From a virus (taxonomy: Duplodnaviria; Caudoviricetes), in the IMG/VR virus record IMGVR_UViG_3300028048_000085, positions 54,851-118,850 of that record: a stretch of DNA of 64,000 nucleotides; one strand, 5' to 3'. Of this stretch, positions 9,138-49,130 are shown piece after piece. Both the position numbers and the translations under genes were made by a program. Within the stretch, counting starts at the first letter, position 1; each line of letters opens with the position of its first letter. Below the pieces are notes generated by a model that saw only the letters and a list, made by a program, of their open reading frames with translations, was not told the origin of the DNA and searched no databases.

Positions 9138-10013
9138 ATGATAGGGTATATGGCATTTTACAAAGAGTTGACATATTGTGGTAAGCAGTATGAAGTAGGC
9201 AAGACGTACGAAATAGAAGGTGGGCCAACTCCATTCAAGCAAGGGTTTATATTTTATAAATCGATTTCAGATTGTTACTGCTGGAATGTAATGAGTGAGG
9301 TTGTACGAATTTGTAAAGTTGAAGTACTTGGGAATGTGGCCGATATGGTGGTAAATAATAATATCCAGTACAGTACAAATAAGATCAGGATTGTAGAAGA
9401 GGTATTGGAAGATTGGAAGAAGAAAGGTAATAGTGAACCAGATAATACTGGTTATAGGAATTGCGGTCATGGTAATTCCGGTACTGATAACTTCGGTAAT
9501 TTCAATACTGGACATAGTAATCATGGTGCTGGAAATACTGGTATGTGCAACATTGGCAATTTCAATGCTGGTAATTGTAACTCTGGTAATTACAATTCTG
9601 GCAATGGAAACAGTCTTGATTATAACTCGGGCGATTTCAATTCCGGTTATTGGAATTCCGGCACTGGAAACTTCGGTGTTTTTAATACAAATAAAAACAC
9701 AAAGATCAAAATGTTCGACAAAGAAAGTGATTGGACTATTGATGATTGGAAGGAATCAAAAGCATATGGAATAATGTTTGATTGTCCTTGTGCATATCTT
9801 GATTTTGTCCCAGCAAACAAAATGACTGAAGAAGAAAAACAAAGGCATCCTGAATACGAAACAGCTGGTGGATTTTATAAAGTATTCGAGGTCACAGTAG
9901 AAGAAAAACAGAAATGGTGGGACAAATTGTCAGAAGAAGACAAGCAGGAAATATTCAACTTGCCAAATTTTGACAAGGATAAATTTAAGGAATGCACAGA
10001 AATTGAGGTGTAA
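9138..10013 (+). CDS. Protein with G-x-x-N-x pentapeptide repeats
   Basis: N-terminal YKELTY..YEVGKTYE domain; repeats such as GNFNT/GNCNS/GNYNS; C-terminal LPNFDKDKFKECT. Confidence 0.75.
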   Translation: MIGYMAFYKELTYCGKQYEVGKTYEIEGGPTPFKQGFIFYKSISDCYCWNVMSEVVRICKVEVLGNVADMVVNNNIQYSTNKIRIVEEVLEDWKKKGNSEPDNTGYRNCGHGNSGTDNFGNFNTGHSNHGAGNTGMCNIGNFNAGNCNSGNYNSGNGNSLDYNSGDFNSGYWNSGTGNFGVFNTNKNTKIKMFDKESDWTIDDWKESKAYGIMFDCPCAYLDFVPANKMTEEEKQRHPEYETAGGFYKVFEVTVEEKQKWWDKLSEEDKQEIFNLPNFDKDKFKECTEIEV

Positions 10014-15224: not shown

Positions 15225-15881
15225 ATGTTACGAGGTACAATCTATTTAACGAATAATCCAAATATAATATATCAAGCAGATTTACGCACAACAAAGATTA
15301 TTAATATGGATGAAGATGGTATCTTGCAGGAGAACAAAAATATCTTAGGAGGAACATGTTTATTACCTCCTGTAGAAGCTAAGATAGCAGAAGCAGACGG
15401 CAATGAACAATTGTACGATATGAGTTACCACAATCATTTGTTGGAACCATATCAGCAGTTCTTCATTGCTGCTATCATAGCTGCGTTGTACAAAGGTGCT
15501 AATCTTCTTATCTTTTTTGATGAGATAGGATATACGAATACAACAAAGAAGTTCGTAGAACAGATGTACATCATTTATGGTATACACATCGGTATTATCG
15601 GTGAGCAAGATCCAGCATTAGCTAATTGCTATTATGATAATAAATGTATTCCTATATGGTTGAATCTGATCTATTCTGCAAAGATCATCGATGGATATGA
15701 ATTCTGCTTACAGTATCCACCAGATGCTGAGTTAACAAATCCACAAGTAATAAAAGATCTCATAGAAGAAATGAATCCTGTTGGTAATACACTTCAGGAA
15801 AAGTTCCATGAGTTAGATCGGTACAGGAAGGATTTACATTTGAATCCTAAAGTTATTATGCCGATATCTTCTATCGTATAA
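15225..15881 (+). CDS. Hypothetical protein
   Basis: 218-aa ORF with RBS; weak resemblance to next gene (LxPP...Y..LYxG..LLI). Confidence 0.7.
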   Translation: MLRGTIYLTNNPNIIYQADLRTTKIINMDEDGILQENKNILGGTCLLPPVEAKIAEADGNEQLYDMSYHNHLLEPYQQFFIAAIIAALYKGANLLIFFDEIGYTNTTKKFVEQMYIIYGIHIGIIGEQDPALANCYYDNKCIPIWLNLIYSAKIIDGYEFCLQYPPDAELTNPQVIKDLIEEMNPVGNTLQEKFHELDRYRKDLHLNPKVIMPISSIV

Positions 15882-15892
15882 GGGAGATTGTT

Positions 15893-16393
15893 ATGTTATT
15901 TTATGGTAACTCTAGTAATGTAGTTGGAGATATTGTTTACAATATCTCCTCTATGAATGAGAAATATTTTCGTTTAGCAACTCTACAACCACCAAACAAT
16001 ATTGGATATCTTACTGATCGTGATTTCGATATTGCTTATGCAAATTATATACTTCAGAATGATATCCCGTTCTATCAGTTCTTCATGATCATATATCCAT
16101 TATATATGGGAAAAGATGTATATCTTATATCTGGTGATGAAAATTGGAATGAGAATCTGATTGAATCGATTCTGAAACTGATTCAGCAGAGATATGGATA
16201 TGAAGGATTTCAGGTAACTTCACAAGAAGATTATCTATTCTTATCTTCCAGAACATCTGATTTCGATCCTGGATATGGATTGATTAATTTGGATCAAGAT
16301 AAGAATCGATTCTTCAATCTTGATATTATCATGAGAGAGCGATTTGGTACAAGTAGTGGATTTTGGAGTTATTCAAATGATGGAGAACTTTAA
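15893..16393 (+). CDS. Hypothetical protein (possible paralogue of 15225..15881)
   Basis: LQPP...FDIAYANYIL...LYMGKDVYLI...YGY. Confidence 0.7.
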   Translation: MLFYGNSSNVVGDIVYNISSMNEKYFRLATLQPPNNIGYLTDRDFDIAYANYILQNDIPFYQFFMIIYPLYMGKDVYLISGDENWNENLIESILKLIQQRYGYEGFQVTSQEDYLFLSSRTSDFDPGYGLINLDQDKNRFFNLDIIMRERFGTSSGFWSYSNDGEL

Positions 16394-23757: not shown

Positions 23758-25077
23758 ATGGTAGCAAGAGTTGCAAAGAATTGGACATATAATCCTAAGT
23801 ACGATGTCGAGGAGTTTGATATCAAAACATTAAATGTACAAAATCTCATCAACCAATTACTGGTAATTAAGCAGTCTGATATCAACTATGAATTTATCAT
23901 GGAGGTTTTTGGATCTTTCAATGGTAAATCCTTGTGTCATCATTATGATACATTCACTGTACCAGTGGGTAAGTTTAGATTTGTTGATGAGAGTAAGCCA
24001 GATCATCCAGTAATGGAGAATGTGACGCCTATTAATACAACATTAGGATTATGGATCTTCAATGTATTCTTCTTGAGAGATTTTAACTTCTCATGGGTTA
24101 TCGGAGGTTACATGAATGAGAATGTAACCACTGATGTATATAATGATATTAACCAGGAATTAGTATATGCTCTATTAGAGAACAAGATTGATTCCGTTCG
24201 TTATAAGAAATTCTTAGACTACTGTGGATTCATGATGCCATTCGAGGCTATATTATCTCCAAACCATTCCGAAAAGATCTTGGGATGTACAAAAGAGATC
24301 AATAAGATGAAAGCTAAGTTGATCAAAGAATATAAAGAAGAATTAGATAATGGTAATGCAGTTGTTGCAGAGATGATTGAGAAGAAATTGCTAGATTTCG
24401 CTTTAGAGTATCTCAAAGATGATCCAGCATTAGATCCATTGTTATCAGGAGCAGGTGGAGACTTAAAGAATAACTTTAAGAATCTCTATATTATGAAGGG
24501 TGCTGTTCGTGATCCAGACCCTAATGCAAAACATGAGTTCTCTATTGCTACATCTTCTTTCCTCGATGGTATATCTGCAGATGAATATTCATTATTAGCA
24601 AACTCATTAACCGGTGGTCCATATTCTCGTGCTAAGAAAACAGAGTTAGGCGGATACTGGGAGAAGTTGTTAGATTCTGCATTAAATTCTGTTATGTTGG
24701 ATGAACCAGGATCTGACTGTGGTTCTAAAGGATATATTACAATTGATCTTACTAAGAAGAATGTATCAATGTTTATGTATTCTTATATGATCAAATCCGA
24801 TGGCTCTTTAGAAGAATTAACAACAGAGAACAAAGATAAATACATCGGTAAACGAGTAAAGTTTAGATTCTCAGCATTCTGCAAATCAAAGAAAGGACTA
24901 TGCAACAAATGTGGAGGAAACTTCTTCTACAGACGAGGATCTAAAGCAATAGGATTAGCATGTGCTCAGGTACCAAGTAGTATAAAGCTTAGAAGCATGA
25001 AGAGCTTCCACGATAGCACAGTCAAGACAGTGGAGTTAAACCCAGCAGCTATCTTCGTTAAGAATCATACTAGATAA
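23758..25077 (+). CDS. Phage RNA polymerase beta'-like subunit (C-terminal part, probably virion RNAP)
   Basis: KTELGGYWEKLL, SDCGS, RFSAFCKS...LCNKCGG, AIGLACAQ, SMKSFH match beta' regions F-G and the Zn site. Confidence 0.85.
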   Translation: MVARVAKNWTYNPKYDVEEFDIKTLNVQNLINQLLVIKQSDINYEFIMEVFGSFNGKSLCHHYDTFTVPVGKFRFVDESKPDHPVMENVTPINTTLGLWIFNVFFLRDFNFSWVIGGYMNENVTTDVYNDINQELVYALLENKIDSVRYKKFLDYCGFMMPFEAILSPNHSEKILGCTKEINKMKAKLIKEYKEELDNGNAVVAEMIEKKLLDFALEYLKDDPALDPLLSGAGGDLKNNFKNLYIMKGAVRDPDPNAKHEFSIATSSFLDGISADEYSLLANSLTGGPYSRAKKTELGGYWEKLLDSALNSVMLDEPGSDCGSKGYITIDLTKKNVSMFMYSYMIKSDGSLEELTTENKDKYIGKRVKFRFSAFCKSKKGLCNKCGGNFFYRRGSKAIGLACAQVPSSIKLRSMKSFHDSTVKTVELNPAAIFVKNHTR

Positions 25078-34552: not shown

Positions 34553-34777
34553 ATGAAGAAGTTTGTATTTGATGATTACAGTGAGTTATTTGTTGGATCT
34601 GCAAGAGAGATCCGATCACTTTACAAGAATCTGGAAAGGAAGACAAGCGCGATTCCGGCATTCGTGGATGATCCTATATTGCGTGGAGATCGTATGTACG
34701 GTATTCATGTACAAGAAGATGGCTACTATACTGTTGTGAACGCTAGTACATGTTTAGCAATTATTCTGGACGACTAA
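34553..34777 (+). CDS. Hypothetical protein
   Basis: Likely start MKKFVF. Confidence 0.6.
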   Translation: MKKFVFDDYSELFVGSAREIRSLYKNLERKTSAIPAFVDDPILRGDRMYGIHVQEDGYYTVVNASTCLAIILDD

Positions 34778-34791
34778 AAGAAAGTGAGGTA

Positions 34792-35010
34792 ATGAATATG
34801 GGAATAGACACAAGTATTAGAAATGGTTTTGAGGAATTTGGAGTTCCTCAGGCAGCAGTTAAAGAAGAAAAAGTAAACAAAGAAAAAGAAGAAGGTGCAA
34901 CAAAACATTATCATTACGAAATTGATGTACCTGATCCAGAAATTGCAGGGATGATTGCATTGGGTGCAACACTGATTGCAATTTCCGTAATTAAGTTATT
35001 ATCTAAATAA
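34792..35010 (+). CDS. Small C-terminally anchored membrane protein
   Basis: MNMGIDT...IAGMIALGATLIAISVIKLLSK; last gene before mini-array 1. Confidence 0.6.
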   Translation: MNMGIDTSIRNGFEEFGVPQAAVKEEKVNKEKEEGATKHYHYEIDVPDPEIAGMIALGATLIAISVIKLLSK

Positions 35011-35015
35011 TAACT

Positions 35016-35165
35016 TGAATCGACGATAAGAATAATCTTATATGTTTGAATGAGTTACCGAATCGAAGCAAAATTAAAGCACGGATACGAATTAAAGGTA
35101 GTAACTAAATTATGAATAATTAATGAGTCATAATGACGGAGTAAATATTAATACTAATGAACGAA
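35016..35165 (+). ncRNA. TIGR-like dual-repeat mini-array 1 (~4 units)
   Basis: YGARTY at 35016, 35051, 35088, 35124 (period 35-37) alternating with AATCTTA/AAAATTA/TAAATTA/AATATTA. Confidence 0.55.
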
Positions 35166-35282
35166 AGCTTGTATGGTGATACTTAATACACAATTCAGTT
35201 TTGTGTATTTTAGTATCACCATATTAGGGCTTTATAATATATCAAAAATTAATTTTTATTTTTTATTTTAACAATATGATAA

Positions 35283-35901
35283 TGAAGAATATGTTATTAG
35301 ATCGAGTTCATAGTATATGTATATGATAAGTTGTGACAAAATAGGTCCTATATAAATGGACACCGCATAGTATATGCACTGACTCTTTATCATATCAGAT
35401 ATTATGTGAAGCATCATCATCGATCACTAAATATAATCGAGCAAATTATTTTTTTATAGTAACCTCATTATTTATCCCAGGTCAGGTTAAAACAGCATTT
35501 GTTTAGTTACATTTGTGTCTATATCTTGTGTCAAATTTTATAGACTTTGGTGATCGGCTTCCCGATTCTATAACATTCTTTCTTCACAGCAACATTTTAA
35601 CAGAATTTATACGCGTATATTTGATGAGGGGATTTGTATACATAAAGTTTAAGTTACGTTTGCTTTAAACGATATAATATGATTGAGACTATGATTATAC
35701 AAATCCCTTCTATCAAGAAATTTTAGAGACTTGAGTGTATATGATGATTTTTTAGAATTGCACATTTACCTTACCAATATTGCAATCATTTTTGAATATA
35801 CAGTCAGATCACTGGCTACTTCTTACTTTGCGTAATCTGTATGCTTGAGTCTCTTTAATATATAAAAATTCAACTTTCTTGCTTATCCTCCATAAGAAGA
35901 A
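35283..35901 (+). ncRNA. Large structured non-coding RNA (unassigned)
   Basis: No ORF; late-type promoter at 35270 and terminator at 35917-35968; many nested helices with + strand G-U pairs. Confidence 0.7.
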
Positions 35902-35916
35902 TATGTTTTTTAGTTT

Positions 35917-35968
35917 CAGTAGATGCGTATAGAGTTTGCCAGCTCTATACGTTATTTACTGTCTTTTT
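35917..35968 (+). terminator. Intrinsic terminator closing the ncRNA
   Basis: CAGTAGAT-GCGTATAGAG-loop-CTCTATACG-TT-ATTTACTG followed by TCTTTTT. Confidence 0.75.
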
Positions 35969-36015
35969 GAAACATCTATATAAATTGTACATTTGAGAAA
36001 GGAGCAAATATTCTT

Positions 36016-37380
36016 ATGGGAGTATATGATAATCATACTTCAGATTATTTGATCGATCTTGTATCATTAGATGAAGCTTATATTGGTAAGCTGCCTGGAT
36101 TAATTGAGATTGAAAAGCAGATTGGTGTTATTAGAGCTAGTGGATTATCGCCATTTAAAGATAATAGTACCAGTCCAGAAGTTCTGAAGTTGAACAGATT
36201 ATTTGAAAAGCAGTTCGGTATGGATGTGTATGCACTACATATCGATCCTAGTGAAACAGTTAATGCATACACTCAGGTTGTAGCAAATACATTTGACTTA
36301 GCAGAATTAGAAGATATGCCAAGGTGGGTAGAGGCATCTCAGGCAAATGGATTCCGCTTTAAAAAGGATAATCCATTCTGTATTTTGGTTACAATATACT
36401 TTGGTATTATCAATGATCCACAGTATACAGACGCAGAGATCTTAGCAATATTATTACATGAGCTTGGTCATAACTTTGCTGATTGCTTATATGATGTAAT
36501 CAATATTAGCAATAAGAGAATGATGAATAATTATCGTGCAGCATTATTGAAGTCGGCAGCTATAGCTGTATGGATTCCAATTCTTGGATGGATATATGCT
36601 GCTCAGGTAAAGAAGCTTATCAATAAGACTCTGAATAATGGTGCACGTAATGCTGCTGAGAAGAAGAGACAGTCTGGTAAACAGCATAATATTGCGGCAT
36701 TCTTTACAGGACTGAAAACCAAGTATGTAGATTTTAGTGCATATATAAGCGAGATCATAAACAGATTAGCAGGTGGCGGCTGGATTGAGAGTTACAAACG
36801 CTATCTTATACAGAATGGTTTAGGTGGTGAAGAAACCAAAAAGAAGGTCGGTCGTCAAAATGAAGTTTTTGCAGATAAGTTTGCTGGTGTATATGGCTAT
36901 GGTCCAGAGCAGGGATCTGCATTGATGAAGATGACCAATAATCAATCTAAAGCTTCAAAGAAAGTAGATTCTCTTGGAGAGGCAGCTCGTAGAGCTAATG
37001 ATTCTTATATAGAGGCTTTAAGAGATATCACAGACTTTGATGTGCATCCACATCTTATTCAGCGTATTAATAGTGAGATCCATCTATTAGAAGCTGAACT
37101 GAAGAAGAAAGATATTGATCCTAAGATGAAGGCTGTTATGCAGGCTCAGATTGATGAGATGAAGAGACAGTTAGCTAATTTGGTAAAGGCTCAGGCTACT
37201 GCCTCAGATCGTGAGAAAGCTCAGGCGGCTTATAATAAGAGCAAACTCAAAAATGATCCAAATGCTACAACAGAACAGCTGGAAAAAGATATTGAGGCTG
37301 CTTATGATCGCTTATTAGATGATCAGAAAAAGAGATCCAAGGCAATGAGGAATAAGACAAAGAAAGGAAGTTCAAAATGA
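36016..37380 (+). CDS. Zincin metallopeptidase (M48-like), probable virion protein
   Basis: LAILLHELGH, downstream NEVFADKFA...GYG, DVHP. Confidence 0.75.
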   Translation: MGVYDNHTSDYLIDLVSLDEAYIGKLPGLIEIEKQIGVIRASGLSPFKDNSTSPEVLKLNRLFEKQFGMDVYALHIDPSETVNAYTQVVANTFDLAELEDMPRWVEASQANGFRFKKDNPFCILVTIYFGIINDPQYTDAEILAILLHELGHNFADCLYDVINISNKRMMNNYRAALLKSAAIAVWIPILGWIYAAQVKKLINKTLNNGARNAAEKKRQSGKQHNIAAFFTGLKTKYVDFSAYISEIINRLAGGGWIESYKRYLIQNGLGGEETKKKVGRQNEVFADKFAGVYGYGPEQGSALMKMTNNQSKASKKVDSLGEAARRANDSYIEALRDITDFDVHPHLIQRINSEIHLLEAELKKKDIDPKMKAVMQAQIDEMKRQLANLVKAQATASDREKAQAAYNKSKLKNDPNATTEQLEKDIEAAYDRLLDDQKKRSKAMRNKTKKGSSK

Positions 37381-48410: not shown

Positions 48411-49130
48411 ATGAAGAAGTTATTCAAGATCGTAACACTGTCAATGATTATTGTAACATTACTTGCTATACCAGCTAATGCTGTAACAACATATTTGTCG
48501 AAATATGAGGTACAAGAACAAATCTCAAAGGTTTCCAAAATCATTAAGAAACTCCAAAAACAATATGTATCTCAGCGGAAAGTAGAAGCAAATGGATATA
48601 CATATATTGCATCTGCAAATATTATATCTTTGAATCCATATATTATAGAGGATATAGATACATCCGAAATGTACTACGTTGAATCAGAAGCAAAAGGATC
48701 ATCTACAATTGTGGATGATAAAGCTTATGATCTATATACAAGGATATCTAAGAACAAATATTCTTATAAAGGAAACATTTGTAAGGGAATTACACTTGTT
48801 AAAGTGGACCACCTAACATCAAATAATATTCTTAAAAAGATTAAGAAGTATCGTAGTAAAATTACAAATTATAAGATGATGCTGAAAGCTAAAGTTGTAA
48901 CTACAAAACTCAATCTAACAGTTGGTGATGAGCAGTATTGGTCTAAAGGATTCAAATTCAAGAAAGCACCTAATACCTCATATTCTGTTGAGATTAGAAA
49001 TAAAGATATTGTGTCTATCGATTATAAGACAGGTCATATTAAAGCTCTTAAATCTGGAAAGACTACAATGTCATGTACTTGCAAACAATCTGGTATTACA
49101 ACATCTATTGTAATAACTGTATCTAAGTAA
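48411..49130 (+). CDS. Secreted protein with C-terminal Ig-like (Big_2) domain
   Basis: Signal peptide MKKLFK...PANA; LTVGD...IVSID..TGHIKALKSGKTTMSCT. Confidence 0.65.
   Translation: MKKLFKIVTLSMIIVTLLAIPANAVTTYLSKYEVQEQISKVSKIIKKLQKQYVSQRKVEANGYTYIASANIISLNPYIIEDIDTSEMYYVESEAKGSSTIVDDKAYDLYTRISKNKYSYKGNICKGITLVKVDHLTSNNILKKIKKYRSKITNYKMMLKAKVVTTKLNLTVGDEQYWSKGFKFKKAPNTSYSVEIRNKDIVSIDYKTGHIKALKSGKTTMSCTCKQSGITTSIVITVSK

Follow-up and report, generated by a model that had tools for sequence, protein, structure and literature searches.

What occupies the largest stretch without an open reading frame in the DNA analysed here, and can it be regarded as a gene in its own right? The window, that is, the whole stretch of 64,000 nucleotides that was analysed, comprises bases 54851-118850 of a 118.8-kb IMG/VR viral contig; the full record (G000) is estimated by CheckV to be ~48% complete, and has a G+C content of 34%. 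The gap covers 1005 nt (35011-36015), and is flanked by a gene for a small membrane protein and a gene for an M48-like protein (Table 1). An earlier note on this DNA interpreted the region as an independent unit that encodes a structured non-coding RNA. We favour, with fair confidence, a stand-alone gene for a structured non-coding RNA of ~675 nt, located at about 35281-35960 on the + strand. The earlier interpretation is thus maintained, and is supported by a promoter and a terminator of the unit's own, by the pattern of indels, by purifying selection in the 3' part, and by retention of shape in the 5' part.

Setting, coding capacity and transcription signals

Two genes in the window (23758-25077 and 49473-54281) match RNA polymerase (RNAP) beta in PHROG, as for a split multisubunit RNAP. 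The best cultured matches of the RNAP subunits are found in the Bacillus phages BpSp, AR9 and PBS1 and in Staphylococcus S6-like jumbo phages at ~32-35% identity, with values of ~32% for BpSp, AR9 and PBS1. Because these phages are the closest cultured relatives of the subunits, the source phage is, by its polymerase sequences, assigned as an uncultured jumbo phage of the AR9 lineage. For the M48-like protein downstream of the gap, more than 200 homologues were found with identities of 36-48%, several of which are located on contigs of 200-300 kb, and it appears to be the product of a widespread jumbo-phage gene. An HELGH (HEXXH) motif is present in the homologue from the relative L023. A search of the 64-kb window with ARAGORN returned neither tRNA nor tmRNA genes.

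On the 5' side of the gap, the segment between the stop codon of the upstream gene and the terminator hairpin that follows it (35016-35167, the 3' UTR) is only 58-67% identical among strains, compared with 97-99% from position 35200 on. Since the upstream gene is about as divergent (68-70% identity) as its 3' UTR, this step looks like a mosaic boundary. No 36-nt tandem repeat was detected in 35016-35167 by Tandem Repeats Finder at score 30.

With respect to coding capacity, the gap holds only spurious frames of 32-51 amino acids under translation table 11, and it is closed in all frames when read with table 4 or with TAG as glutamine. Every small ORF is disrupted by 1-nt indels among strains, also inside the most conserved (3') domain, where a 34-residue frame is interrupted in this manner. 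Other short candidates, namely 35731-35835 (+), 35649-35765 (-) and a 14-codon frame at the predicted transcription start, were rejected, since indels or substitutions disrupt them in other strains. The single-base indels within the most conserved domain exclude protein coding as the cause of its conservation. At the level of sequence, the unit is thereby shown to be non-coding, in agreement with its earlier description as ORF-free.

Table 1. Features in and around the gap, with positions in the window and, for parts of the RNA unit, pairwise divergence among strains
Feature	Position	Strand	Description	Divergence
Small membrane-protein gene	34750-35010		5' neighbour of the gap	
Strong hairpin ending the operon of small-membrane-protein genes	35166-35223	+	15-nt arms 93% complementary; conserved in L011, L015, L018, L019	
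Late-type promoter AACA-N6-TA	35270-35281	+	AACAATATGATA (AACA ATATGA TA); fits AR9 late consensus; predicted start A35281	
5' domain	35284-35582	+	Consensus fold; closing stem 35284-35306/35562-35582, arms 35309-35406 and 35408-35561	0.10-0.17 plus indels
Hypervariable linker	35583-35622	+	Two unrelated sequence types swapped among strains	Mostly 0.3-0.5; 0.00-0.14 between strains of same linker type
Middle long hairpin	35623-35714	+	GAGGGGATTTGTATA / TATACAAATCCCTTC plus apex; 28+9 bp in consensus	0.04-0.12
3' domain	35720-35859	+	23-bp stem with 5 G-U pairs closing three-way junction; most conserved part	0.000-0.022
Tail hairpin	35863-35912	+	Consensus fold; CCUCC loop 35887-35891	35862-35917: mostly 0.00-0.05; apparent ~0.25 in L015 arises because an indel pair shifts the alignment
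Terminator hairpin and U-rich tail	35918-35960	+	Core 35925-35952, 12-bp stem; terminator scan	
Late-type promoter of M48-like gene	35971-35982	+	AACATCTATATA; separate; 33 nt before start codon; identical copy elsewhere in G000	
M48-like gene, 454 aa	36016-37380	+	3' neighbour of the gap; weak Pfam M48 match; phrog_2767	

The late promoter consensus of phage AR9 is 5'-A(-11)ACA-(6N)-U-A/G(+1) (PMC7598289). The late-type promoter previously proposed at 35270 agrees with this consensus and with the genome's own recurrent extended motif, although two mismatches are present relative to the best copies of the latter. The site is invariant in the 9/9 strains that cover it, and with the predicted start the first helix would begin 3 nt from the 5' end. 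In G000, the short late motif has 126 copies, 36 of which lie in non-coding sequence, which makes up 17% of the record. The extended form, aAACAtnnnTATAaat, is present in many copies 15-85 nt before start codons; examples are found at 35971 (gene 36016), at 56121 and 59118 (two large genes), and at 54244 on the minus strand. The putative late timing of the RNA unit is deduced from the class of its promoter motif.

Two further observations concern promoter motifs elsewhere in the genome. On the minus strand, two near-identical aAACAtnnnTATAaat-type copies are spaced 188 nt apart (record positions 49078 and 49266), the next gene called on that strand being 0.8-1.0 kb away from each, and several ORF-free gaps of 440-690 nt are located between record positions 42.6 and 51.9 kb; the paired motifs and these gaps may represent further non-coding late units. 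A different recurrent motif, TCATATACTATATAC, has about 12 copies on the + strand (e.g., 8153, 33383, 44151, 46731 and 54278), and is absent at the RNA unit. When T[CT]ATATACTATATAC is allowed up to three mismatches, 22 occurrences are obtained versus 10.4 expected, and the near-perfect copies (0-2 mismatches) are found exclusively on the + strand, several of them just 5' of + strand genes. In its behaviour this motif resembles the early promoters described for AR9-type phages (PMC7598289), and probably constitutes the early (virion RNAP) promoter class of the present phage.

As for the 3' boundary, a terminator is indeed present, but at 35925-35952 rather than at 35917 as first assigned, which places the end of the unit at ~35960 instead of 35901. 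The U-tract of this terminator is interrupted, and at the base pair 35928/35947 3 sequences have U-A where 9 have G-C, which amounts to a compensatory change. The separate promoter of gene 36016 is invariant in all strains. Because that gene has a late promoter of its own after the terminator, and has homologues that lack the RNA, the RNA unit is most readily regarded as independent of it.

Fold, strand and selection

The neighbouring 454-residue protein belongs to a cluster of 15 members at 90% identity, beyond which nothing above 48% is found. The contigs of the cluster members stem from at least 13 different sequencing runs (separate metagenomes), and provided eight distinct full-length and four partial copies of the gap, with a gap length of 957-1082 nt in all recovered strains. 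From seven full-length variants, RNAalifold derives one consensus fold of 227 pairs across the whole unit. Standard pairs account for 97.7% of the pair cells, compared with 37-46% when the partners are slid by 1-3 columns, and the architecture of the 5' domain is recovered in the minimum free energy (MFE) structure of each individual strain. The consensus energy of the alignment is -139 kcal/mol versus -81 +/- 6 in column shuffles (z -9.6), whereas flanking coding controls from the same seven genomes (three blocks of 733 columns) give z values of -2.9 to -3.2. For single sequences, z relative to dinucleotide shuffles is -3.7 to -6.2, with ordinary windows of the genome at -2 to -3 and a few reaching -5, and the folding residual after regression on G+C content is only -0.9 SD. 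Folding exceeds chance at the alignment level, and only modestly so at the single-sequence level; the single-sequence MFE was dropped as evidence for an RNA, being within the range of other windows of this genome.

The consensus features three folded domains followed by the hairpin with the CCUCC loop, and together with the alignment z value this agrees with the multi-domain structure that was originally claimed. Eight of the nine helices listed in the earlier note are present in the MFE or the consensus fold, while GTAAC/GTTAC appears in neither. The helix GATCACTAAA/TTTGGTGATC exists only in the window and in L019; in the remaining strains the pairing is shifted to a different register, UCAUCAA/UUGAUGA. 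Among strains, the middle hairpin is nearly invariant at its apex (35640-35695). The CCUCC loop is retained in 12/12 sequences, and is the complement of GGAGG ribosome-binding sites used by phage genes. A loop-loop contact, UGUCA/UGACA, that was seen by eye is broken in L015 without compensation, and was discarded. Strain L020 has an 18-nt (TA)n expansion (L020:1960-1985, aligned to ~35391) in the 3' strand of the AUAUGAUAA/UUAUCAUAU helix, with the fold still predicted, and the variable loop of its P5 arm is 28 nt larger.

The consensus contains 20 majority G-U pairs and no A-C pairs, and five of the G-U pairs reside in the 23-bp stem of the 3' domain, where they cannot form on the minus strand. 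The consensus energy is -116 kcal/mol for the reverse complement, i.e., 23 kcal/mol worse than on the + strand. One-sided substitutions, counted as + only versus minus only, number 24 to 11 on the + consensus, and still favour the + strand (21 versus 13) when the consensus is instead optimised for the minus strand. Compared with its own shuffles, the reverse complement likewise shows strong folding (z -6.5). The G-U bias, the energy difference and the one-sided substitutions point to an RNA from the + strand and argue against inverted repeats at the DNA level; the previous suggestion that the G-U pairs favour the + strand is therefore substantiated.

To provide a baseline for divergence among the strains, two downstream genes were used, for which pairwise values are 0.10-0.17 at four-fold degenerate sites and 0.012-0.035 at codon positions 1+2. 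Relative to these values (Table 1), the alignment shows the 3' domain to be under strong purifying selection, evolving about ten times slower than neutral sites and at a rate like that of codon positions 1+2. The 5' domain, on the other hand, drifts at about the neutral rate while its structure is retained. In random-mutation simulations the stability of the 5' domain corresponds to z values of -1.8 to -2.7; strains that carry 30-48 substitutions in this domain relative to the window equal or surpass it in folding, which is matched by only 0-3/150 randomly mutated copies carrying the same number and type of changes as the strain compared.

Double-sided changes are observed in 4 pairs, a number reached by 17/500 shuffles, and the covariation score is reached by 0/500 shuffles, both for 8 closely related, recombining variants. 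The compensatory series comprise U-A/U-G/C-G at 35518/35544 in the GUCUAUA/UAUAGAC helix and C-G/U-G/U-A at 35412/35557 in the P5 stem; in the middle hairpin, a U-A pair is changed to A-U in L015 and to U-G in L017, and the fourth two-sided pair is the U-A/G-C exchange in the terminator. As seen from the window, L019, L020 and L026, the strains are mosaic, with 5'-domain variant, linker type and terminator variant assorting independently. In its 5'-domain variant the window agrees with L019, and in its linker with L020. This pattern indicates frequent recombination within the phage population. Since the strains are mosaic, counts of variants do not represent independent events. With a single narrow clade and recombination, the compensatory events (4 pairs) are few and not independent, so that the depth of covariation is low. 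The covariation analysis that the earlier note proposed yields double-sided pairs and a score above all 500 shuffles, at the low depth given by one narrow clade and 8 variants.

Distribution and alternative explanations

A cmscan search of the whole window against Rfam 15 gave no matches at gathering scores. For 34900-36100 at E<=10, only chance matches below 21 bits to unrelated small families were obtained, and none to ROOL or GOLLD; five related loci were likewise without Rfam match. At E<=10, phi29 pRNA, 6S RNA, tmRNA, RNase P RNA and group I/II introns did not match, and a known riboswitch class was rejected on the same grounds. The Infernal/Rfam search that had been suggested accordingly assigns the RNA to no family, and the reluctance of the earlier note to name a class was justified. 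When the 1-kb gap was compared by blastn with 50,697 phage records no match was found, and scans of IMG/VR and JGI metagenomes for exact copies of conserved 17-23-mers returned one chance match in an unrelated 61-kb phage and otherwise none. A search with a covariance model of the 3' domain (R1) found neither a further copy in the 118.8-kb record nor any copy in L002, L023 or L024.

At the syntenic site in L002, only 113 nt precede the homologous gene, and the RNA is absent. The corresponding site in L023 also lacks the RNA, and features an uncalled, very hydrophobic ORF of 72 residues (9669-9887) that has a good ribosome-binding site and a terminator behind it. This ORF occupies the place taken in the clade of the window by the small membrane-protein gene and the RNA gene. 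As the RNA is kept in all close strains, but absent in L002 and L023, the RNA gene appears to be specific to a narrow clade, defined by at least 90% identity in the neighbouring protein. L023, a distant relative with a 289.6-kb contig, has a 549-nt ORF-free gap elsewhere (15377-15925) that contains a G-rich tract, has a z of -6.2 and no Rfam match; this gap is a candidate for a different non-coding RNA.

Other explanations for the unit have to be weighed against a stand-alone RNA gene. A non-functional spacer or the remnant of a decayed gene, with hairpins arising by chance in AT-rich sequence, would be in line with the ordinary single-sequence folding energy and with the absence from distant relatives. 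However, the 3' domain is ~ten times more conserved than four-fold sites, the structure z of the alignment is three times that of the coding controls, compensatory changes are present, the promoter is invariant, and the terminator is retained. Neither is a recent recombination sweep supported, as the flanks of 35720-35859 are not equally invariant. We regard this explanation as the least probable of those considered. An element acting at the DNA level, such as a replication origin, a packaging site or a cluster of protein-binding inverted repeats, is only marginally more probable. The region is the largest non-coding gap, AT-rich and endowed with many inverted repeats, and the z value of the reverse complement is what such an element would predict. 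Against this stand the 20 G-U pairs in the absence of A-C pairs, including the five in the 3' stem that would be mismatched in DNA or on the other strand, and the substitutions, which keep pairing of the + strand RNA rather than duplex symmetry. In addition, a search for iterons and tandem repeats found none, and the unit is bracketed by a promoter and a terminator.

More credible, yet in our judgement still unlikely, is a long cis-acting leader, i.e., an attenuator or processive-antitermination element that governs read-through into the operon of the M48-like gene. The end of the terminator and the start codon of gene 36016 are 62 nt apart, which is a layout typical of leaders, and base pairing is conceivable between the linker of the window (35601-35619) and the terminator's 5' arm (35920-35938). 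This pairing is without covariation, however, and linker type and terminator variant are independent in the window, L020 and L017. Furthermore, an invariant late-type promoter dedicated to gene 36016 is situated after the terminator and ahead of the ribosome-binding site, no comparable leader precedes the homologous genes of L002 and L023, and a length of 650 nt is far beyond that of leaders known to us. The leader or attenuator reading is weakened because of the promoter belonging to gene 36016, the missing covariation, and the absence of the RNA upstream of homologues. Equally unlikely is a precursor or carrier of smaller RNAs, where processing would take place in the linker, and where the 3' part and the CCUCC hairpin would act as late antisense on Shine-Dalgarno sites of early or host mRNAs in the manner of RNAIII and RsaE. 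The presence of the loop in 12/12 sequences, the GGAGG-type ribosome-binding sites of phage genes, and the linker as the sole part free to vary are compatible with such a role. Nevertheless, there is a single loop of this kind, its 5-nt match is without statistical weight, and the 135-nt junction domain is conserved far beyond the need of a seed-type regulator. In the available 118.8 kb, which correspond to about half the genome, the longest match to a potential antisense target is 13 nt (E about 1).

Possible function and relation to known systems

Returning to the stand-alone RNA gene, the RNA would be transcribed late in infection by the non-virion multisubunit RNAP of the phage, and would act in trans as a folded molecule, our best guess being via its invariant 3' domain. 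The invariant three-way junction in this domain, together with the apex of the middle hairpin, could be the surface by which a protein or RNA partner is specifically contacted, whereas the fast-drifting but shape-conserved 5' domain may provide a scaffold or stabilise the molecule. Contact with Shine-Dalgarno sequences may be made by the CCUCC loop, although a match of 5 nt proves nothing. With E. coli 16S, 23S and 5S rRNA as proxy, the longest complementarity or mimicry was 11 nt, a length reached by 55% of shuffles, and a supposed match of ACCUUACC to 16S rRNA was rejected as being below chance level.

Large structured phage RNAs such as GOLLD and ROOL are among the least understood RNA classes. 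In this respect the unit offers a clean case, with a defined promoter and terminator, a length of ~675 nt, a 135-nt junction domain that is invariant, and a variable 5' domain of conserved shape, and it gives experiments such as in vitro transcription, chemical probing, cryo-EM and pull-downs a concrete construct to work with. The narrow distribution limits the weight of the finding. As a speculation that we put forward with considerable doubt, the RNA might be one of an undescribed layer of large late structured RNAs in AR9-like jumbo phages, made by the non-virion polymerase and functioning as folded machines or decoys rather than as antisense RNAs. Examples of such a function, if the speculation is true, would be binding of a virion, assembly or host-defence protein, or multimeric assembly as in ROOL and GOLLD.

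Among known systems, S. aureus RNAIII and RsaE are regulators with C-rich loops, and the present RNA resembles them in its conserved C-rich hairpin loop (CCUCC) complementary to Shine-Dalgarno sequences. Unlike RNAIII and RsaE, it has only one such loop, and most of its conserved sequence is located elsewhere. In AR9-type late transcription, uracil-containing DNA is required for promoter recognition. The unit is similar to AR9 late units in that the promoter consensus is matched and multisubunit RNAP genes resembling those of AR9/PBS1 (about 32% identity) are present in the phage. The AR9 transcription report describes late monocistronic units inside early operons as well as late antisense and internal transcripts, but no non-coding RNA gene was found in it by a search for relevant terms (PMC5312081), which constitutes a difference to the unit described here.

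The likeness to ROOL and GOLLD proposed in the earlier note applies to size and phage origin, but does not extend to a covariance-model match. Shared properties are a length of 0.5-0.8 kb, location in a phage, a multi-domain fold and the absence of coding capacity, and as far as can be judged the mode of action is alike. ROOL and GOLLD are large ornate RNAs of unknown function, often found in Firmicutes phages and prophages, and GOLLD frequently adjoins tRNA genes in (pro)phages. In contrast to GOLLD, the unit has no tRNA genes within 64 kb. It also deviates from both classes by being very AT-rich with plain AU-rich loops, by its AR9-type late promoter, and by its occurrence, so far, in one narrow clade of virulent-type jumbo phage. 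We know of no large structured RNA described for jumbo phages that encode their own multisubunit RNAPs. Judged by these comparisons, the RNA represents a new family within the broad kind of large phage-borne RNAs, and it is real with good probability.
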